DNA from: Oscillibacter sp.
GTDB lineage: Bacteria; Bacillota; Clostridia; Oscillospirales; Oscillospiraceae
Length of the DNA stretch: 64,000 nucleotides
Direction: 5' to 3'
Assembly (NCBI GenBank): GCA_022652655.1
Contig: JALCRQ010000003.1
Location: 27,668-91,667, forward strand
In this document: one piece after another, positions 10,330 to 18,836 of the stretch
Layout: every line of letters starts with the position of its first letter
Numbering within the stretch: the first letter of the stretch is position 1
The notes under the pieces: generated by a model
Seen by the model: only the letters and a program-made list of their open reading frames with translations
What the model was told of the DNA's origin: nothing
Databases searched by the model: none
Program-made: the position numbers and the translations under genes

Positions 10330-11598
10330 TTAACCGAACAGGCTCATCAGCACGCCGGCCGCGATGGCGGAGCCGATGACGCCGGCCACATTGGGGCCCA
10401 TGGCGTGCATCAGCAGGAAGTTGCCGGGATTCTCCTTCTGGCCCTCCATCTGGGATACACGGGCGGCCATGGGGACGGCGGATACGCCGGCGGAGCCGAT
10501 GAGAGGATTGATTTTTTCCTTGAGGAACAGGTTCATGAACTTGGCCAGCAGCACGCCGCCGGCGGTGCCGAAGCCGAAGGCCACCACGCCCATGCACATG
10601 ATGGCGATGGTCTGGCCGGAGATAAAGGTGGCACCGGTGGCCGTGGCGCCGACGCTGACGCCCAGGAAGATGGTGACAATGTTGATGAGTTCGTTCTGAA
10701 CTGTCTTGCTCAGCCGTTCCACCACACCACATTCACGGAACAGGTTGCCCAGCATCAGGCAGACGATCAAAGGCGCGGCGGAGGGCACCAGCAGGGCCAC
10801 AAAAATCGTGACCACAATGGGGAAGATAATCTTTTCCCGTTTGGAGACCTCCCGCAGGGGCTTCATAACGATTGCGCGCTCGGACTTGGTGGTCAGCGCC
10901 CGCATGATGGGCGGCTGGATCACCGGGACCAGCGCCATGTAGGAGTAGGCCGCCACCGCGATGGGCCCCAGCAGCTCCGGCGCCAGCCGGGAGGTGACGA
11001 AGATGGCTGTGGGGCCGTCCGCGCCGCCGATGATGCCGATGGATGAGGCCTGCTTGGCGGTAAAGGAGAGGAACGGCAAAACCCGGCAGCCGATAAAGGT
11101 CATAAAGATGCCCAGCTGCGCGGCCGCGCCCAGCAGCAGACTCTTGGGATTGGCGATCAGGGGGCCGAAGTCGGTCATGGCGCCCACGCCCATAAAGATG
11201 AGGCAGGGGTAGATGCCCAGCTTGATGCCCAGATACAGGATGTCCACCAGACCCGGGGTGATGGTCTGTCCCACATGGACGGAGGCCAGCACGGCCTGGG
11301 ATACGCCGTCGGAGGCCAGGGTGTTGAGGAAGGCCTGGGTGATCTCGGCACCGCCAAAAAGGTTCCAGTGGACATGTCCGCCGGCGAAAAGGATTTCATG
11401 GAACATCTCCGCCCCGGGCAGGTTGGTGAGCAGCATGCCGAAGGCAATGGTCACCAGCAGCAGCGGCTCAAATTTCTTGCCGATGCCCAGATACAGGAGC
11501 ACGCAGGCAATGGCGATCATAATGAGGCTTTTCCAGCCGCCTGCCACAAAAAACTGGTAAAACCCCGTACTTTGACAAAAATTGATAATTGCTTCCAT
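10330..11598 (-). CDS. oadB: Na+-translocating decarboxylase beta subunit (integral membrane)
   Basis: 422-aa polytopic protein. Sequence such as GIIGGADGPT and MGPNVAGVIGSAIAAG is characteristic of the OadB/GcdB/MmdB family. Confidence 0.9.
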   Translation of the reverse strand: MEAIINFCQSTGFYQFFVAGGWKSLIMIAIACVLLYLGIGKKFEPLLLVTIAFGMLLTNLPGAEMFHEILFAGGHVHWNLFGGAEITQAFLNTLASDGVSQAVLASVHVGQTITPGLVDILYLGIKLGIYPCLIFMGVGAMTDFGPLIANPKSLLLGAAAQLGIFMTFIGCRVLPFLSFTAKQASSIGIIGGADGPTAIFVTSRLAPELLGPIAVAAYSYMALVPVIQPPIMRALTTKSERAIVMKPLREVSKREKIIFPIVVTIFVALLVPSAAPLIVCLMLGNLFRECGVVERLSKTVQNELINIVTIFLGVSVGATATGATFISGQTIAIMCMGVVAFGFGTAGGVLLAKFMNLFLKEKINPLIGSAGVSAVPMAARVSQMEGQKENPGNFLLMHAMGPNVAGVIGSAIAAGVLMSLFG

Positions 11599-11616
11599 AT
11601 CGTGTCCTCCAGTCCC

Positions 11617-11964
11617 TTACTGGATGACGCACAGCAGGGTGCCGGATTCCACGGACGAGCCCTTGGAGGTGTTGACGGAGGCGACGGTGCCGTCCCGGGG
11701 GCACATGATCTCATTTTCCATTTTCATGGCCTCCAGGATCATCAGCACCTGGCCGCGCTTGACACTGTCCCCCGCCTTCACATTGACGGCGAGAATGGTG
11801 CCGGGCATGGGGGAGGAGATCTTCTCCGCTCCGGCGGGAGCGGCGGCAGCAGGTGCGGCGGGAGCGGGTGCAGGGGCCGCGGCGGGTGCGCTCTGAACGC
11901 CGGTCAGTTCCTCCAGCTCTACCTCATAGGCTGTTCCGTTGACAGTCACTTTGTATTTTTTCAT
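11617..11964 (-). CDS. biotin carboxyl carrier protein (stand-alone biotinyl domain)
   Basis: 115 aa with an Ala/Pro linker and the biotinylation motif EAMKMENEI. Confidence 0.85.
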   Translation of the reverse strand: MKKYKVTVNGTAYEVELEELTGVQSAPAAAPAPAPAAPAAAAPAGAEKISSPMPGTILAVNVKAGDSVKRGQVLMILEAMKMENEIMCPRDGTVASVNTSKGSSVESGTLLCVIQ

Positions 11965-11990
11965 GGTTTTTCTCCTATCTTCTCTTTTCT

Positions 11991-12284
11991 TCAGTTTTTG
12001 GAGCCGTCCAGTTTTCGGAACGACAGAATTCGGATGCCGGAGATGTCGGTTCCCAGATTTTCAGCCAGAGCGGCGGAGACTGCGGCCAGCATTTCCTGCC
12101 GGTTGGGCTCTGCCGGGGCCGGAACGGCCGCAGGCGCAGACTCCGCGGACGGCGCCGCCTGGGTGCTTCCATTCGCCTTTCGGCACAGGGCCGACATGGC
12201 GTATGTCAGCGCGATGATGCAGATCAGACCGAAAAATACGGTTCCCAATCCCATCAGACAGACAAACAGGTTGGAATAGTCCAT
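11991..12284 (-). CDS. oadG: decarboxylase gamma subunit (OadG-like small membrane anchor)
   Basis: 97 aa with a single N-terminal TM helix and an Ala/Pro-rich linker. It is the first gene of the oad operon. Confidence 0.6.
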   Translation of the reverse strand: MDYSNLFVCLMGLGTVFFGLICIIALTYAMSALCRKANGSTQAAPSAESAPAAVPAPAEPNRQEMLAAVSAALAENLGTDISGIRILSFRKLDGSKN

Positions 12285-12488
12285 AAGATTCCTCCTTAAG
12301 CCAAACTTTGCTGTCCATTATAACAAAAAAGAGGGCGGATTACAATCGATTGGGAAGAATATTTTACCTGCCGGCAGTGTAATTTGCCCGGTGCCATTGA
12401 TAAAACCCCTTGAGCCGCAAAAGACATTGACTTGTTTCCCGGAAAGATGCAGAATAAGAGACAATCCGACAAAAGGGGAGGAGACGCG

Positions 12489-13169
12489 GTGCGCTACGGA
12501 ACAGTTATCCCGGGCAGGTTCCGGGAACGGCCCAATCGCTTTATCGCGATTGTGGATACGGAGGACGGCCGGCAGATCTGCCATGTGAAAAACACGGGCC
12601 GCTGCCGGGAGCTGCTGGTGCCCGGCGCCGCGGTTTATCTGGAGCGGGCGGAGAATCCCGCCCGAAAGACCCGGTTTGATCTCATTGCCGTGCGCAAGGG
12701 AGAACGCCTCATCAATATGGACGCCCAGGCGCCCAACCGGGTGTTCGGCGAGTGGGCGGCCGCGGGCGGTTTTCTTCCCGACGTGCGGAGCATCCGGCCG
12801 GAGTATGTCTACGGTGGGTCGCGGCTGGATTTCTGCCTTACCACGGATCGGGGGCTTCACCTGGTGGAGGTCAAGGGCGTCACGCTGGAGAGCCGCGGCG
12901 CGGCCTTTTTTCCGGACGCCCCTACGGAGCGGGGTGTCCGGCATTTGGGGGAGCTGGCCCGCGCCGTAGGAGAGGGACTTGACGCAACGCTGTTTTTTGT
13001 GATACAACTAGAAAATATCCGCAGTATGGCTCCCAACGACGCCACGCATCCGGCTTTCGGCGCGGCGCTGCGTGGGGCGGCGGCTGCGGGCGTACACATT
13101 CAGGCCTGGGACTGTACCGTGACGCCGGATACCATTGAGATCTGCCGTCCGGTTCCGGTCATTTTATAA
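12489..13169 (+). CDS. sfsA: sugar fermentation stimulation protein SfsA (nuclease-fold DNA-binding protein)
   Basis: GRFRERPNRFIAIV...CHVKNTGRCRELL...VEVKGVTL. The GTG at 12489 follows GGGGAGGAG. The track ORF begins at TTG 12432, which is an alternative start. Confidence 0.85.
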   Translation: MRYGTVIPGRFRERPNRFIAIVDTEDGRQICHVKNTGRCRELLVPGAAVYLERAENPARKTRFDLIAVRKGERLINMDAQAPNRVFGEWAAAGGFLPDVRSIRPEYVYGGSRLDFCLTTDRGLHLVEVKGVTLESRGAAFFPDAPTERGVRHLGELARAVGEGLDATLFFVIQLENIRSMAPNDATHPAFGAALRGAAAAGVHIQAWDCTVTPDTIEICRPVPVIL

Positions 13170-13185
13170 TGCGGAGGACTTTTTC

Positions 13186-13761
13186 ATGGGTTTACCGGAG
13201 CTCTTTTTGATCGGGGTGGGCCTTTCCATGGACGCGTTTGCCGTGGCGGTCTGCCGGGGGCTGTCCATGCGGAGGCTGAACTGGGGACATGCCCTGATTA
13301 TCGCGCTGTATTTTGGGGGCTTTCAGGCGCTGATGCCGCTTCTGGGGTGGCTGCTGGGGTCCCGTTTCGCCGGGTACATCCAAAGTGTGGATCACTGGAT
13401 CGCCTTTGTCCTGCTGGCGCTGATCGGCGGGAACATGGTTCGAGAGGCCTTCGGCGAGGGGGATGACTGCGCCGGCGGCGCCTGTGAGAGCGGCGACCGA
13501 CTGGATTACAAGCAGCTTTTTCTGATGGCCGTGGCCACCAGCATCGACGCGCTGGCTGTGGGCGTGACCTTCGCCTTTCTCAGCGTCTCCATTGTGCCCG
13601 CCGTCTCCATCATCGGCGTGACAACCTTCTGCCTGTCTGTGGCAGGCGTGGTCATCGGGAACGTCTTCGGCGCCCGGTACAAGCGCCGGGCAGAGATCAC
13701 CGGCGGAATCATTCTGATTCTGCTGGGGGCTAAGATTCTCATCGAGCATCTGCTCAGCTGA
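13186..13761 (+). CDS. mntP: manganese efflux pump MntP family
   Basis: Two DUF204 repeats (GLSMDAFAVAV / ATSIDALAVGV) across six hydrophobic segments. ATG 13186 follows the RBS GCGGAGGA. Confidence 0.85.
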   Translation: MGLPELFLIGVGLSMDAFAVAVCRGLSMRRLNWGHALIIALYFGGFQALMPLLGWLLGSRFAGYIQSVDHWIAFVLLALIGGNMVREAFGEGDDCAGGACESGDRLDYKQLFLMAVATSIDALAVGVTFAFLSVSIVPAVSIIGVTTFCLSVAGVVIGNVFGARYKRRAEITGGIILILLGAKILIEHLLS

Positions 13762-13769
13762 GCTTTTTC

Positions 13770-13797
13770 TTGCATTTTTTCACAGCTGTGCTACAAT
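13770..13797 (+). promoter_or_regulatory. sigma-A-like promoter with extended -10
   Basis: TTGCAT (13770-75), a 16-nt spacer, then TGc-TACAAT (13789-97). Confidence 0.55.
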
Positions 13798-13846
13798 AAC
13801 TGCGATCAGAACCCGCGCGCAGTCCGCTGCGCCGCAATCTGAAAAT

Positions 13847-13910
13847 CCGGGGAAAGAAGTGCTCCCCTGGCTTTGCCAAAACCGCTTGAAAGAGCTGATG
13901 ACTTCTGCTG
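13847..13910 (+). promoter_or_regulatory. candidate fluoride riboswitch aptamer (crcB motif)
   Basis: P1 is GGGG 13849-52 / CCCC 13864-67. Loop AGAAGU (13855-60) is complementary to ACUUCU (13901-06), giving a pseudoknot. The AAAAC linker is at 13878-82, P3 GCU-UGAAAG-AGC at 13884-95 and UGAUG at 13896-900. This order matches my memory of known fluoride aptamers; details are in the findings. Confidence 0.55.
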
Positions 13911-13941
13911 AAGGGCAGAGATCACCGGCTCTTTTGTTTTT
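13891..13941 (+). terminator. intrinsic terminator / expression platform of the leader
   Basis: AGAGCUGAUGACUUCUGC (13891-908) pairs with GCAGAGAUCACCGGCUCU (13915-32), with 2 mismatches and 2 G-U pairs, then UUUUGUUUUU. The left arm overlaps the aptamer's P3 3' strand and pseudoknot 3' strand. Confidence 0.7.
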
Positions 13942-13988
13942 GCGCGGAAGGGTGAGCAAAAAGATCAGATAGAAATGGATGAGGAAAC

Positions 13989-15503
13989 GTGTTTGAGAGT
14001 ATTTTATTTCCTGCGGGGGCCCCGCAGCCTGCGCGTGTGCAGAGCCCGCCGGAATTTTTCGACGATCTGGGCCTGAGCCGGATCATCGCCCGGGCGGGCC
14101 GCGGCTGCGAGGAGCTGTGGCCGTTTTATACCCCGCTTTCCGACCCGGCTGTCATCCGCTACCGCCAGGAGGTGGGGCGGGATCTGGAGGATGCCGCCCT
14201 GCGGTACCGGTTCGCGGGACTGGCCCAGCAGCTCCGGGCGCTGAGCCGGCAGCTCTCGGCCCACCGGACAGAGGACTTTCCATGGGTGCGGTGCAGCGAT
14301 CTTCTCTCCGCCGCGGGACAGTATCTGGAGCAGCTGCGCGCATTTTTGGAGGATTTTCCCTACGGGAGCGTCCATTCGGAGGGACTGGAGTCGTTTTTGC
14401 TCCACATCCGCCAGCATCTGAACAGCGCCCGGACCGTCCAGATGAGCATGGAGCTTTCCAAGCTGGAGCGGGAGCTGTGCGGGGTGGATTACTGCATCCT
14501 GCTGGACGGCAACACGCTCCGGGTAGGCGGCCCGGGGAAATCCCAGGAGATTGACGGGCTGGTGGAGTCGCTGTTTGACCGGTTCGGACAGGAGAATTTC
14601 GGCGGCGGAACCTGCCAGGCGCCGGGAGGCGAGCAGGACGTCCGGAACGAGGATGCGGTGCTGTCCCTTCTGGCGCGGGAGCACCCCGAGACGTTTCGCC
14701 GCCTGGCGGACTTTGGCCGGCGGTACGGCGATTTTGCCGATCCCGGGATTCTGGCCTTTGCCCGGGAGCTTCCGTTCTACCTGGGGTATCTGGACGCCAC
14801 GGACGGCATTGCCCGCGCCGGCGGCTCCTTCTGCTATCCCGCGCTGCTGGACGGATGGGACGGCTGCCGGGGAGAGGACGGCTTTGACCTGGCTCTGGCC
14901 ATGCGGCTGCAGGAAGCCGGCGGGAAGCCGGTGGAAAACAGCTTCGCGCTGCACGGGCGGGAGCGGATTCTGGTCGTCACGGGGCCGAATCAGGGCGGAA
15001 AGACCACCTATGCCAGGATGCTGGGCCAGATCTTCTATCTGGCGTCCCTGGGCGTGCGGGTGCCGGGCAGAGCTGCGGCGCTGCGGATTCCGGATCGGAT
15101 CTGCACGCACTTCGGAAAGGCGGGGCCGGACGGCGCGGACGGTCTGCGCCAGGAGCTCACGCGGCTGCGGGGCCTTCTGGAGCAGACCACCCAGGGGAGC
15201 CTGGTGATCCTCAATGAGATTTTTGCCTCCGCCTCTCACGGCGACGGCGTATATCTGGGGGAAAAGCTGATGGAGCGGCTGACGGACACCGGCTGCATGG
15301 CGGTATTCGTCACTTTCCTGTACGAGCTGGCCGACTGCGGACCGGCTGTGGTCAGCGTGATGAGCGAGATCCGGCCCGGTACCGCGGCGGAGCGGAGCTA
15401 TCACATTGCGCGGCACGCGCCCAACGGCTGCGCCTATGCGCTGTCGCTGGCGGAAAAGCTGGGATTGACCCGTGAGAAAATCACCGGGAGGCTGGAACAA
15501 TGA
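13989..15503 (+). CDS. MutS-family ATPase (domains III/V only), paralog 1, Walker B variant NE
   Basis: Walker A VVTGPNQGGKTTYARMLGQ. Walker B region SLVILNEIFASASHGDG (canonical MutS has DE). No mismatch-binding N-terminal domain and no Smr or endonuclease tail. GTG start follows GAGGA. Confidence 0.8.
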   Translation: MFESILFPAGAPQPARVQSPPEFFDDLGLSRIIARAGRGCEELWPFYTPLSDPAVIRYRQEVGRDLEDAALRYRFAGLAQQLRALSRQLSAHRTEDFPWVRCSDLLSAAGQYLEQLRAFLEDFPYGSVHSEGLESFLLHIRQHLNSARTVQMSMELSKLERELCGVDYCILLDGNTLRVGGPGKSQEIDGLVESLFDRFGQENFGGGTCQAPGGEQDVRNEDAVLSLLAREHPETFRRLADFGRRYGDFADPGILAFARELPFYLGYLDATDGIARAGGSFCYPALLDGWDGCRGEDGFDLALAMRLQEAGGKPVENSFALHGRERILVVTGPNQGGKTTYARMLGQIFYLASLGVRVPGRAAALRIPDRICTHFGKAGPDGADGLRQELTRLRGLLEQTTQGSLVILNEIFASASHGDGVYLGEKLMERLTDTGCMAVFVTFLYELADCGPAVVSVMSEIRPGTAAERSYHIARHAPNGCAYALSLAEKLGLTREKITGRLEQ

Positions 15504-16969
15504 GAGTTTGTCTGATGGATGCGGACGCCGGCCGGCGGTTCGGAGCTCCGCTGCCCTTTGGCGCAGAGGACGTTAAAAAAGATCTGGGGCTGGAGGAAGT
15601 CATCGGGGCCATGGCGGGGGAGGACCCGGTGATCCGCGCCTCGGCGGAGACGGCGCTGCTCTCTCCCCTGAAAGAGGAGGAGCGGATTCTCTACCGCCAG
15701 CGGATTCTTCGGGACTGTCTCCGGAATCCCCGGGAGATCCGCAGGCTGTATGCCCTGGCCGGCGCGGCGCTGGACGCCCAGGAGGACGGAGACCTGCACT
15801 TCAGCGAGCTGCAGACGGTGAGCCGTCAGTTTGACCGGTGCCTGACCCGGCTGACCCGGCTTCTGGAGGCGCTTCAAAAACTGCGGGCACTGGCGGAGGA
15901 GAACCGGGAGAGCGTGTCGTCGCCCGGGCTTCAGGGCCTTTTCAAAGACCTTCTCGGCAACCTGGACGACGCCTTTTTCTCCGGGGCCGATCAGCTGCTG
16001 GCCCAGCTGCGGTTTCCCGGGGGGATGCTGATCGGCGCCCGGCTGAGCCGGACGGGGCGGAGCGTGGGGCACAGGCTCCTGTGCTGCGGCCCGGAGGAGC
16101 GGGACCGTCTGAGCGGCGAGACTTTCTATCAGGTGCCGGAGGGCGATCAGCGGGGAAACGCGGATCTGCTGCACCGGCGGGAGCTGGCTCTGGCCGACAG
16201 CAACCGGATTCTGGTGCGGGCCGTATCCGGCGTGTGCGAGTATCTGCGGACGCTGCGGCGGGAGCTGGCATTTTACATCGGGTGCATGAACCTGTACGAG
16301 CTTTTGCAGGCCCGGGGCCTGGCGGTCTGCTTTCCCGCGCTCTCGGCGCAGCCGGAGCACTGGAGCGCGGCCGGACTTACGGAGCTGTGCCTTGGCCTTC
16401 AGGGGAGCGCCCCTGCCTCCAACGACCTGGAGGCCGACGGCTGCTGCCTTGTCACCGGAGCGGATCAGGGGGGAAAGACCACCTTTTTGCGCTCCCTGGG
16501 TCAGGCGCAGCTGATGCTGCAGTGCGGGATGTTTACAGCAGCGTCGTCCTTCCGGGCTCCCGCCGCGGACGGGGTGTATACCCACTTCCAGCGGGAGGAG
16601 GACCGGGGACTTGTCAACGGCAAGCTGGGCGAGGAGCTGTCCCGGATGAGCGGCATTGTGGATCACCTTCACCGGGGCTCGCTGGTGCTGTGCGACGAGA
16701 GCTTCTGCTCCACCAACGAGCGGGAGGGGGCGGAGATCGCCCTTCAGGTGACGGAGGCCCTGCGCGCCGCGGGCGTGTCTGTTTTTGCGGTGACCAATCT
16801 CTTTCCCTTTGCCCGGGAGCTGTACGCCAGGCGGAAGGCGGAGCCCTGCACCTTCCTGCGGGCGGAGCGGCTGGCGGACGGTACCCGCACCAGACGGATT
16901 CTGCCGGGGGAGCCCCAGAGGACCTCCTTCTGCGAGGATCTGTACCGGGAAATTTTTCAGGAGGCCTGA
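15500..16969 (+). CDS. MutS-family ATPase (domains III/V only), paralog 2, canonical DE Walker B
   Basis: Walker A LVTGADQGGKTTFLRSLGQ. Walker B SLVLCDESFCSTNEREG. ATGA overlap with the upstream paralog. Confidence 0.8.
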   Translation: MRVCLMDADAGRRFGAPLPFGAEDVKKDLGLEEVIGAMAGEDPVIRASAETALLSPLKEEERILYRQRILRDCLRNPREIRRLYALAGAALDAQEDGDLHFSELQTVSRQFDRCLTRLTRLLEALQKLRALAEENRESVSSPGLQGLFKDLLGNLDDAFFSGADQLLAQLRFPGGMLIGARLSRTGRSVGHRLLCCGPEERDRLSGETFYQVPEGDQRGNADLLHRRELALADSNRILVRAVSGVCEYLRTLRRELAFYIGCMNLYELLQARGLAVCFPALSAQPEHWSAAGLTELCLGLQGSAPASNDLEADGCCLVTGADQGGKTTFLRSLGQAQLMLQCGMFTAASSFRAPAADGVYTHFQREEDRGLVNGKLGEELSRMSGIVDHLHRGSLVLCDESFCSTNEREGAEIALQVTEALRAAGVSVFAVTNLFPFARELYARRKAEPCTFLRAERLADGTRTRRILPGEPQRTSFCEDLYREIFQEA

Positions 16970-16985: not shown

Positions 16986-17022
16986 TACCCGGAGCCAAAA
17001 CGGCTCCGGGTATTCTTTTTTT
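16986..17022 (+). terminator. intrinsic terminator after the MutS-like pair
   Basis: TACCCGGAGCC-AAAAC-GGCTCCGGGTA followed by TTCTTTTTTT. Confidence 0.75.
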
Positions 17023-17072: not shown

Positions 17073-18836
17073 TTATTCGGCGCTGTGGGTATCCCGAAGC
17101 TCCTGGGTGCGCACCAGCTGGGCGTAGGCGCCGTTCTTCTCCATCAGTTCCCCGTGGGAGCCGATTTCGGCGATTCGTCCGTCCTCGATCACCGCGATCC
17201 GGTCCGCGTTCCGCACGGTGGAGAGGCGGTGGGCGATGATGACGGTGGTGCGGCCCCGGGCCAGCTTTTCAAAGGTGTGCTGGATTTTGGCCTCTGTGAC
17301 GCTGTCCAGAGCGGAGGTGGCCTCGTCCAGAATCAGCACCGGGGGATCCTTCAGAAAAATCCGGGCGATGGAAATGCGCTGCTTCTGTCCGCCGGAGAGC
17401 AGGGTGCCCCGCTCGCCCACGTAGGTGTCGAAGCCGTCGGGCAGGGACGCGATGTCGTCGTAGATCTCCGCCAGACGGGCCGCCTGCTCCACCTCCGCCT
17501 CAGCGGCGCCGGGCTTGCCGTAGCGGATGTTTTCCAGCACGCTGTCGGCAAAGAGAAATACGTCCTGCTGCACCACGCCTACGTTTTGCCGCAGGGACTC
17601 CTGGGTGACGTCCCGCACGTCCGTTCCGTCGATGCGGATGCACCCCGACGACACGTCGTAAAACCGGGGAATCAGCTGGCACAGGGTGGACTTTCCGCCG
17701 CCGGAGGGCCCCACCACCGCCAGCGTCTCCCCCGGGCGGATGTGGAGATCCACGTCGTGCAGCACCGCCAGATCGTCCTGATAGGCGAAGCTCACGTGTT
17801 CCACGTCGATCTGTCCCCGGACCCGGGCCAGAATTTTGGCGTCCGGCGCGTCCCGGAGGGAGGGCTCCGTCCGCATCAGCTCCACGAAGCGGTGGAGCCC
17901 GGCGGTGCCGTTGGCGAACAGCTCCGCGAAGTTGGAGAGCTTGCGCACGGGTGTGACGAAGGTGGTGATATAGAGGCTGAAGGTGATGAGATCGATGGTG
18001 TTCATCTTCCCGCCCATGATGAGCCCTCCGCCCACGGCGATGACGGCGGCGGGGAGAATACACAGGAAAAACTCCATGGTGGCGTTGAACCGCCCCATGG
18101 CCTTGTGAAACTGCCGCTTGGAAACCTTGAAGCTGTCATTGGAGACGTCGAACTTCCGCAGCTCTGTATCCTCGTTGGCAAAGGCTTTGGCGGTTTTGAT
18201 GCCGGACAGTCCGGATTCAATGTCCGCGTTGATGGCCGCGGTTTTCTGCTTGACCCGAACAGACGCCTCGCCCATGGAGCGCCGGCTGCGCCAGATCACC
18301 AGAAAGAAAACCGGGAGGATCAGGGTAATGACCAGGGCCAGCCGCCACTGAATGGTGAACATGACGCAAAGGGAGCCTGTGATGGTCACGGCCGAGATAA
18401 AGACGTCCTCCGGCCCGTGGTGCGCCAGCTCCGTAATATCGAAAAGATCGGCAGTGAGGCGGCTCATCAGCTGGCCGGTGCGGTTTTGATCGAAGTACCG
18501 GAAGCTGAGCTCCTGCATGTGGTGAAAGAGATCCCGCCGGATGTCGGCCTCCACCAGGATGCCGAAGGTGTGCCCCCAGTAGCAGATGACATAGGAGAGC
18601 AGCGAGCGGAGGGCAAACGCTGCGAATACCACGGCCATCACCGCGAAAAAAGTCCGGTATGCGCTCTGGGGCAGCAGCTCGTACATGCACCAGCGGGAGA
18701 TGTACGGGAACGCCAGGTCGATCAGGGAGATCAGCAGGGCGCAGGACATGTCCAGAATAAAGAGCTTTTTGTGGGGCGGGAAATAGGAGAGAAAAATCCG
18801 AAGGGCGGATTTATTCTGAAAATCGCGGGTTGTCAT
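17073..18836 (-). CDS. ABC exporter, fused permease/ATPase (MsbA/multidrug type)
   Basis: Six-TM N-terminal half. Walker A GPSGGGKST, signature LSGGQKQR, Walker B ILILDEATSALD. Confidence 0.9.
   Translation of the reverse strand: MTTRDFQNKSALRIFLSYFPPHKKLFILDMSCALLISLIDLAFPYISRWCMYELLPQSAYRTFFAVMAVVFAAFALRSLLSYVICYWGHTFGILVEADIRRDLFHHMQELSFRYFDQNRTGQLMSRLTADLFDITELAHHGPEDVFISAVTITGSLCVMFTIQWRLALVITLILPVFFLVIWRSRRSMGEASVRVKQKTAAINADIESGLSGIKTAKAFANEDTELRKFDVSNDSFKVSKRQFHKAMGRFNATMEFFLCILPAAVIAVGGGLIMGGKMNTIDLITFSLYITTFVTPVRKLSNFAELFANGTAGLHRFVELMRTEPSLRDAPDAKILARVRGQIDVEHVSFAYQDDLAVLHDVDLHIRPGETLAVVGPSGGGKSTLCQLIPRFYDVSSGCIRIDGTDVRDVTQESLRQNVGVVQQDVFLFADSVLENIRYGKPGAAEAEVEQAARLAEIYDDIASLPDGFDTYVGERGTLLSGGQKQRISIARIFLKDPPVLILDEATSALDSVTEAKIQHTFEKLARGRTTVIIAHRLSTVRNADRIAVIEDGRIAEIGSHGELMEKNGAYAQLVRTQELRDTHSAE

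Follow-up and report, generated by a model that had tools for sequence, protein, structure and literature searches.

A mutS4A-mutS4B operon behind a predicted fluoride riboswitch in Oscillibacter sp.

A 64,000-nucleotide (nt) stretch of the Oscillibacter sp. assembly GCA_022652655.1 (contig JALCRQ010000003.1, positions 27,668 to 91,667; hereafter, the window) contains two adjacent genes for truncated MutS-family ATPases, preceded by a leader that matches the fluoride riboswitch. Going by the published description of the MutS4 subfamily (domain content and overlapping stop and start codons), we assign this pair to the MutS4A/MutS4B type, and the two genes very probably form a mutS4A-mutS4B operon under a predicted fluoride ON riboswitch. 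A preliminary description of the same DNA had proposed an undescribed system, and this does not hold: the pair matches the published MutS4A/MutS4B (PMC2190696, PMC5742357), and a crcB motif upstream of mutS has been known since 2010 (PMC2864571). We instead read the module as one more MutS4A/B member within the known fluoride regulon. The MutS4 pair itself and the link of the crcB motif to mutS genes are thus already known in outline; found in none of the literature searched, as far as those searches show, are the identity of the riboswitch-linked 'mutS' with the MutS4 pair, the strength of the association and the motif asymmetry within the pair. As had been suggested, the module is self-contained, running from the riboswitch to a terminator, with the following features:

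13841..13914, + strand: fluoride riboswitch aptamer RF01734 (crcB motif), predicted by Rfam (34.9 bits against a gathering score of 34, E 6e-6)
13892..13941, + strand: putative expression platform from RNA folding, an intrinsic terminator hairpin (13892-13931) followed by UUUUGUUUUU (13932-13941)
13981..13991, + strand: putative Shine-Dalgarno sequence GAGGA and GTG start codon of mutS4A, from a reading of the sequence and the conserved N-terminus
13989..15503, + strand: mutS4A-type gene (A), 504 amino acids, GTG start, MutS domains III-IV-V only
15500..15503, + strand: 4-nt ATGA stop/start overlap of A and B, from the coordinates of the open reading frames (ORFs); a published MutS4 signature
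15500..16969, + strand: mutS4B-type gene (B), 489 amino acids, ATG start, MutS domains III-IV-V only
16986..17022, no strand assigned: predicted bidirectional intrinsic terminator closing the operon, common to a convergent ABC-exporter gene

The ORF coordinates and an hhalign comparison agree with the earlier statement that two adjacent paralogs of 504 and 489 amino acids are joined by an ATGA overlap, and A and B align as full-length paralogs (probability 100, E 1e-49, 22% identity over 450 columns). Their Walker A motifs, GPNQGGKTT in A and GADQGGKTT in B, are likewise as first given. One 1026-amino-acid entry in the representative library (P0277) appears to fuse the two proteins, its A and B parts being joined by an Arg-rich out-of-frame stretch. 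This looks like frameshift read-through in G+C-rich DNA; P0277 is probably an assembly or gene-calling artefact, and it was not used as Rosetta-stone evidence of contact between A and B.

Both proteins consist of the MutS core, the clamp and the ABC-type ATPase (domains III-V), and nothing more. The only Pfam domain found in either is MutS_V (PF00488; E 3.4e-17 for A and 1.7e-12 for B); neither protein matched MutS_I (PF01624), MutS_II or Smr (PF01713) in Pfam, nor MutS_III at E<=0.01. Of the Pfam result anticipated in the preliminary description, the presence of PF00488 and the absence of PF01624 and PF01713 were borne out, but the possible MutS_III match (PF05192) went undetected. When aligned with E. 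coli MutS, A and B begin at about residue 270-290 and stop right after the helix-turn-helix of domain V. AlphaFold monomer models (predicted local distance difference test, or pLDDT, 86.7 and predicted template modelling score, or pTM, 0.84 for A; pLDDT 92.5 and pTM 0.91 for B) were compared with solved structures using Foldseek, and over about 520 aligned columns both resembled the MutS2 core of T. thermophilus (7vuk/7vuf; for A E 3e-19, for B E 1e-15). They also matched domains III-V of human MSH2/3/6 and of bacterial MutS, as well as the structure of B. subtilis MutS2 bound to collided ribosomes (7qv3). Searched with a profile built from homologs of A, solved structures in PDB were matched via domain V only, the best being the MutS2 core 7vuf (E 4e-30); in addition, the N-terminal region weakly resembled the beginning of MutS domain III. 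Domains III and IV are visible in the two proteins by fold comparison only, not by Pfam.

The pair falls outside canonical MutS1 and MutS2, as had been anticipated. The mismatch-recognition domain I (PF01624) and the connector domain II of MutS1 are absent both by Pfam and in the alignment with E. coli MutS, and the NCBIfam MutS1 models gave 37-73 bits against cut-offs of 480-642. The domain III-V fold of MutS2 is present, but its C-terminal KOW and Smr domains are missing, the proteins lacking PF01713 and ending after domain V, and the MutS2 model TIGR01069 gave 39-44 bits against a cut-off of 400. All NCBIfam matches, whether to MutS1, MutS2 or KamC, were partial, covering the ATPase region only and lying well below the curated cut-offs. 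The MutS2 core (7vuf/7vuk; 7qv3) remains the best structural and sequence match and shares the III-IV-V arrangement without domains I and II; however, MutS2 is encoded by a single gene, forms a homodimer and carries a C-terminal KOW domain and Smr nuclease, whereas here there are two divergent paralogs with no C-terminal extension. KamC (NF052383), which belongs to the lysine 5,6-aminomutase reactivase, is similar in being a MutS-like ATPase of about 500 amino acids without a mismatch domain, and its NCBIfam name implies a role away from DNA. Membership in KamC was rejected, as A and B scored 40.5 and 58.9 bits against a cut-off of 300 and no kamD or kamE (kamDE) lies nearby. A role in anti-phage defence was also set aside, as PADLOC returned no match for A or B.

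The description that the pair does fit is that of MutS4. Lin, Nei and Ma defined this subfamily in 2007 by a MutS ATPase domain, usually in two copies named MutS4A and MutS4B, in five bacterial and two archaeal species (PMC2190696), with adjacent A/B paralogs in which the A stop codon overlaps the B start codon as its signature (PMC2190696; PMC5742357). The hosts named were Thermoanaerobacter tengcongensis, the Chloroflexus group, Thermoplasma and Ferroplasma, and the function was given as 'not studied' (PMC2190696); MutS4 was later known from 17 mycobacterial strains (PMC5742357). The window pair shares with these proteins the MutS ATPase domain, the absence of MutS-I/II and Smr, the A/B stop/start overlap and a scattered occurrence in bacteria and archaea. 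Furthermore, a 13-gene island of M. yongonense (OEM_51290-51410) carries MutS4A/B (OEM_51400/51410) along with an enolase, an NADH dehydrogenase complex and a hydrogenase subunit (Kim et al., 2017; PMC5742357), and this gene set is that of the fluoride islands described below. What differs is that the published accounts make no fluoride link, neither fluoride nor a riboswitch being mentioned in the MutS4 papers (PMC2190696, PMC5742357), and that few species were known then, whereas relatives were found here in at least 598 species-level genomes.

For the comparison of related loci, we used the best 80 of at least 598 confirmed stretches (598 of 600) matching an A-family alignment in the genome collection (individual loci are given by L numbers). 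These 80 loci cover Chloroflexota, Firmicutes, Spirochaetes, Thermotogae, Proteobacteria, Verrucomicrobia, Actinomycetes and archaea, and an exhaustive profile search returned 2,482 clusters (50% identity) at E<=1e-30. The pair co-occurs in related genomes: in 75 loci, A is immediately followed by a B-type gene, with most exceptions at contig ends, and the A-then-B order recurs in Chloroflexota, Firmicutes (including Thermoanaerobacter, L004), Proteobacteria, Actinomycetes and archaea (L044, L059). The A-B junction is a 4-nt overlap in 59 of these 75 loci, which supports the proposed translational coupling, and the gap or overlap is at most 20 nt in 66. A and B give separate match lists from the same contigs, each with its own orthologs.

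The association with the riboswitch is similarly widespread. At the Rfam gathering threshold, RF01734 was found upstream of A in 10 of the 13 loci of a first set; a covariance model was built from these hits and then searched against all loci, which sorted as follows:

43/80 loci: riboswitch at most 350 nt upstream of A, same strand, at least 27 bits
16/80 loci: riboswitch 350-2500 nt upstream of A, same strand, with other genes between
6/80 loci: weak match only, at the expected place
4/80 loci: riboswitch elsewhere in the locus only
11/80 loci: no riboswitch match, three of them with little or no upstream sequence

Overall, 59 of the 80 loci have a fluoride riboswitch upstream on the same strand. 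On re-testing with Rfam, all 13 of 13 adjacent riboswitch hits were confirmed, with scores of up to 62.8 bits, and the closest relative of the window (L081) carries RF01734 at 40.1 bits in the same position. Two or more riboswitches are present in 27 loci, with six in L008.

The aptamer of the window is of a variant form: its P1 loop has 9 nt and its linker contains an additional mini-hairpin (GGC/GCC, about 13869-13877), two features common to L045, L061 and L077. Because homologous leaders score up to 62.8 bits at the same position, we take its marginal score to reflect this variation rather than a chance match. Aptamers of this Firmicutes type, which besides the loop and the mini-hairpin has a GGGA...UCCC P1, were observed at window 13841-13914, L045:4865-4937, L061:4511-4582, L077:4207-4278 and L062:4143-4215, and this type scores near or under the Rfam gathering score; the L062 aptamer was missed by Rfam and reached 55 bits with a covariance model trained on relatives. 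A reading of the window sequence suggests a possible pseudoknot in which the loop AGAAGU pairs with the 3' ACUUCU. Folding of the RNA from 13841 to 13992 (minimum free energy -50.1 kcal/mol, z -2.6) places the terminator hairpin in both the minimum free energy and the centroid structures, and the 5' arm of this terminator is the 3' part of the aptamer (GAGCUGAUGACUUCUGC), pseudoknot strand included. Aptamer and terminator are predicted to be mutually exclusive, which, following the logic of Weinberg et al. (PMC2864571), implies by analogy that the leader would be an ON switch.

This arrangement is that of the known fluoride regulon. Among the genes found behind crcB RNAs, Weinberg et al. (2010) named 'DNA repair (mutS)' as well as K+/Cl- transporters and formate hydrogenlyase, and they noted that the aptamer overlaps a terminator, which would imply more expression at higher ligand concentration (PMC2864571). 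The overlap of aptamer and terminator is shared by the window leader, and the loci studied here share with the regulon CrcB, the Na+/H+ exchanger, enolase, Usp and a hydrogenlyase-like complex. The differences are that the 2010 text speaks of DNA-repair mutS without noting the truncated, paired MutS4 type, and that the aptamer of the window, being a variant, scores low and has an additional hairpin in its linker. MutS-related genes are reportedly also listed in the fluoride regulon by Baker et al. in 2012. In our searches, Weinberg et al. (2010; PMC2864571) was the only paper found that joins the fluoride riboswitch with MutS, and none of the papers listed by a search on fluoride stress mentions MutS.

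The start of A appears to differ from that of the public record. A deposited protein identical to A (P0001, from an Oscillibacter sp. metagenome-assembled genome) has 488 amino acids and begins 16 codons 3' of GTG 13989. Among 116 homologs of A, an N-terminal motif F-x-S-I-L-F is conserved (F in 102, S in 109, I in 102, L in 116 and F in 99), and it starts at residue 2 of the GTG-initiated window protein (full N-terminus M-x-F-x-S-I-L-F). Because of this family-wide motif and the preceding GAGGA, GTG 13989 is probably the true start, and the start in the public record was probably mis-called, cutting off the motif (window 13989-14036). Beta-clamp-binding motifs follow the pattern QL[SD]LF. We considered and rejected F-x-S-I-L-F as such a motif, as it fits the pattern poorly and as the model packs this segment with high confidence (pLDDT about 90); the segment is probably structural.

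The ATPase motifs of A and B differ from the canonical ABC type and from each other. In the A family (the same 116 homologs), the Walker A sequence GPNQGGKTT is invariant, Walker B is Asn-Glu rather than Asp-Glu in 115 proteins (N409-E410 in window A), and Phe stands at the H-loop His position in all 116 (F443 in window A). In the B family (118 homologs), Walker A reads G-A-(N/D)-x-GGK, and the first Walker B residue is Asn in 97 proteins and Asp in 19 (D399-E400 in window B). The Walker A and Walker B residues of B co-vary nearly without exception (N/N in 97, D/D in 18, mixed in 3), window B being of the D/D type (residues 322 and 399), and behind Walker B lies an invariant S-T-N-E-R-E-G motif. 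The H-loop His is kept in 114 of the 118 B proteins, and the Asn of window B (N433) is unique among them. Set against a canonical ABC-type ATPase, with its Walker A Lys, Walker B Asp-Glu and H-loop His, both window proteins have an intact Walker A; A departs from the other two motifs, B keeps Asp-Glu and departs at the H-loop, and nucleotide binding is likely. Because the family-wide motifs of A (Asn-Glu, Phe) differ from those of B (usually His), the pair has a built-in asymmetry, as in eukaryotic MSH heterodimers, along with unusual Mg2+-site chemistry. The MSH2-MSH3 and MSH2-MSH6 heterodimers and E. coli MutS are likewise dimeric ABC-type ATPase clamps with unequal nucleotide sites and matching III-V folds; unlike these, the MutS4 pair lacks the mismatch-binding and connector domains, has no MutL partner nearby, and in subunit A replaces the Walker-B Asp with Asn and the H-loop His with Phe.

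Beyond the module, sfsA and mntP lie upstream on the same strand (Pfam), and two further features adjoin it:

13770..13797, + strand: possible promoter (TTGCAT, 16-nt spacer, TGc-TACAAT extended -10) between the mntP stop and the riboswitch, tentatively read from the sequence
17073-18836, - strand: convergent ABC-exporter gene (Pfam ABC_membrane and ABC_tran)

A consensus promoter scan did not flag the candidate at 13770-13797. The strong terminator hairpin (16986-17012), just 3' of the B stop, is G+C-rich, with a stem of 11-12 bp (base pairs) that includes 8 G-C pairs and a T-run on the + strand. The G+C content of the module is 0.65-0.67 compared to about 0.60-0.62 nearby, which we did not consider decisive as a signal of horizontal transfer. 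Further upstream (10330-12284, - strand), the translations resemble a Na+-translocating decarboxylase set, with a beta subunit, a biotin carrier with an AMKME motif and a small gamma-like subunit; sfsA and mntP follow at 12432-13761 (+ strand).

Across the 80 loci, the genes directly behind riboswitch hits or otherwise recurrent were counted:

Enolase: 17/80 loci
Dynamin-family GTPase, about 580 amino acids: 16-20/80 loci
Major facilitator superfamily (MFS) transporters: 11-12/80 loci
Na+/H+ exchanger: 10-11/80 loci
CrcB: 10/80 loci
Usp: 9/80 loci
Phosphoglycerate-mutase-family phosphatase: 7/80 loci
NADH-dehydrogenase / hydrogenlyase-like membrane subunits: about 6/80 loci

This set is the classic fluoride regulon plus a dynamin-like GTPase. 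The gene for the GTPase sometimes shares an operon with the pair, which it adjoins directly upstream in L011, L013, L032 and L056 and directly downstream in L057 and L064, and in L072 it directly follows A, in the usual place of B. In nine cases it stands directly behind a fluoride riboswitch (Pfam Dynamin_N; LeoA-like by PADLOC), and copies were located at L011:3240-4982, L013:3125-4993, L056:3021-4700, L057:8050-9819 and L008:9252-10913. To our knowledge, no dynamin-like protein has been described as acting in fluoride stress. Some loci are fluoride islands (L008 from Candidatus Formimonas warabiya, L022, L037, L050 and L076), with up to six RF01734-type riboswitches within 11.5 kb that drive an Na+/H+ exchanger, CrcB, the dynamin-like GTPase, a DUF6062 protein (L008:2271-2951) and the MutS4 pair.

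The earlier statement that no mechanism has been established for the pair under fluoride stands, nothing to the contrary having been found in the literature. The reading that we favour, with middling confidence in the whole, is a fluoride-induced A/B heterodimeric clamp that acts on DNA. As fluoride rises in the cytoplasm, the aptamer would fold, the terminator would be blocked and the operon would be transcribed, with coupled translation giving roughly equal amounts of A and B. The two proteins would then heterodimerise via their ATPase domains, like all MutS proteins; such a heterodimer is likely because of the co-inheritance of the genes, their translational coupling and the complementary degeneracy of their motifs. 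Its two composite nucleotide sites would be unequal, with the Walker-B Asn and H-loop Phe contributed by A and normally a His by B, and it would operate as an ATP-driven DNA clamp without mismatch recognition. Like the MutS2 core, the clamp would probably have stalled forks and branched or recombination DNA as its substrates, and it could promote or license recombination-based rescue while fluoride poisons Mg- and nucleotide-dependent enzymes.

The DNA role is the part of this reading that we hold only tentatively, leaning slightly against it when it is taken by itself. We favour it over other roles because of the MutS clamp fold, the charge of the B clamp, which resembles that of E. coli MutS (B-family median net charge +4 compared to +3 for the E. 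coli MutS clamp; 0 in window B), a recombination phenotype and a precedent in another fluoride operon. In M. smegmatis, the M. yongonense MutS4 operon raised homeologous rpoB recombination, with 55 compared to 22 rifampicin-resistant (RifR) colonies and 75% compared to 31% confirmed recombinants (PMC5742357). In P. putida, rarA, annotated as a recombination factor, lies in the crcB operon and was needed for fluoride tolerance in transposon sequencing (Tn-seq; PMC9796867). Several observations weigh against the favoured reading. The M. smegmatis experiment used heterologous expression and small numbers, and no fluoride (PMC5742357). Both proteins are acidic overall (net charge about -10), and the clamp of A is not basic (family median -1, window A -7). 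Since neither H-loop position of the window pair carries His (F443, N433), its ATP turnover may be slow, and the window riboswitch clears the gathering score by a margin of only 0.9 bit. No nuclease, MutL, helicase or other DNA-repair partner recurs among the neighbours in the 80 loci, where the recurrent genes are instead transporters, glycolytic enzymes, Usp, the hydrogenlyase-like complex and the dynamin-like GTPase. In line with the preliminary description, no MutL-like gene lies beside the window pair, although MutL may well be encoded at a distance and of this genome only the window was covered.

We weighed four other explanations, of which the least credible by far is an artefact, either of one frameshifted mutS or of a chance riboswitch match with no fluoride regulation. 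The narrow margin of the window aptamer and the many long spurious ORFs that high G+C produces in the window would allow for it, but RF01734 recurs at the same position with scores of up to 62.8 bits, and the pair with its 4-nt overlap recurs in dozens of loci across phyla. A single frameshifted canonical mutS is ruled out, each ORF being a complete III-V paralog that has a separate Walker A and separate orthologs in a conserved pair. It is unlikely, though less far-fetched, that the pair is a fluoride-tolerant stand-in for a housekeeping MutS2 or MutS ATPase, with an altered Mg2+ site that resists metal-fluoride transition-state analogues. Other regulon members are indeed extra copies of fluoride-sensitive enzymes such as enolase, the Walker-B Asn is near-universal in A and frequent in B, where it co-varies with Walker A (N/N 97, D/D 18), and the E. 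coli MutS D693N structure 3k0s is among the fold matches; yet proteins that lack Smr, KOW and mismatch domains could not replace full MutS2 or MutS1 function, and fluoride tolerance of the A/B ATPase is pure inference. A little less improbable is a part in RNA or ribosome quality control, in which the A/B clamp would split stalled or collided ribosomes like MutS2/RqcU, by ATP-driven closure; such ribosomes could accumulate if fluoride complexes trap translational GTPases. Pointing this way are the match of both models to the B. subtilis MutS2-collided-disome structure (7qv3), the MutS2 core as the best PDB sequence match (7vuf, E 4e-30) and the dynamin-family GTPase of 16-20 loci, which also matches the ribosome-binding families MMR_HSR1 and GTP_EFTU, though more weakly. 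The models, however, resemble 7qv3 no better than they resemble DNA-bound MutS structures, the pair lacks the KOW and Smr domains found at the C-terminus of MutS2, and ribosome-associated genes are not recurrent among the neighbours.

To a role in reactivating proteins we give a similarly small chance. Here a KamC-like A/B ATPase would pry open enzymes locked by Mg-fluoride(-phosphate), with enolase as the obvious client. The KamC model (about 508 positions) is the best NCBIfam match of B (58.9 bits) and the third-ranked of A (40.5 bits), though far under the 300-bit cut-off and over the ATPase region only, and a mutS-family gene is found within lysine fermentation clusters (PMC3149608). Consistent with such a role, A and B are both acidic, and the typical riboswitch-controlled neighbours include enolase (17/80 loci) and the phosphoglycerate-mutase family (7/80) and no DNA-repair partner; enolase is, however, not beside the pair in most loci, and the sole experiment favours recombination (PMC5742357). 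A further reading, which likewise seems to us improbable, is that MutS4A/B is a fluoride-specific ATP-driven remodeller rather than a DNA-repair factor, releasing proteins locked by metal-fluoride complexes. The unusual Mg2+ site could then be an adaptation for cycling despite metal-fluoride transition-state mimics, the clients could be NTPases caught on ribosomes or DNA, or else enzymes poisoned by Mg-F, for instance enolase, and the pair may act jointly with the co-located, riboswitch-controlled dynamin-like GTPase. It counts against a reactivase that we know of no ATPase-driven reactivation of a fluoride-inhibited enzyme.

Fluoride riboswitches belong to the most widespread kinds of riboswitch, and the genes they control are mostly exporters, genes of pH homeostasis and fluoride-sensitive enzymes. 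The MutS-like genes are a leftover part of this regulon for which we found no explained role. Recognising the riboswitch-linked mutS as MutS4A/B joins two literatures, one on MutS phylogeny and recombination and one on the fluoride regulon, that apparently make no reference to one another. The association with fluoride is very close, the riboswitch being present in about three quarters of the loci, from many phyla, and MutS4A/B is conserved and asymmetric and has unusual ATPase chemistry. If solved, its function would reveal a target of fluoride toxicity beyond glycolysis, be it DNA transactions, translation or enzyme poisoning, and would give a role to a branch of the MutS family found in thousands of genomes.

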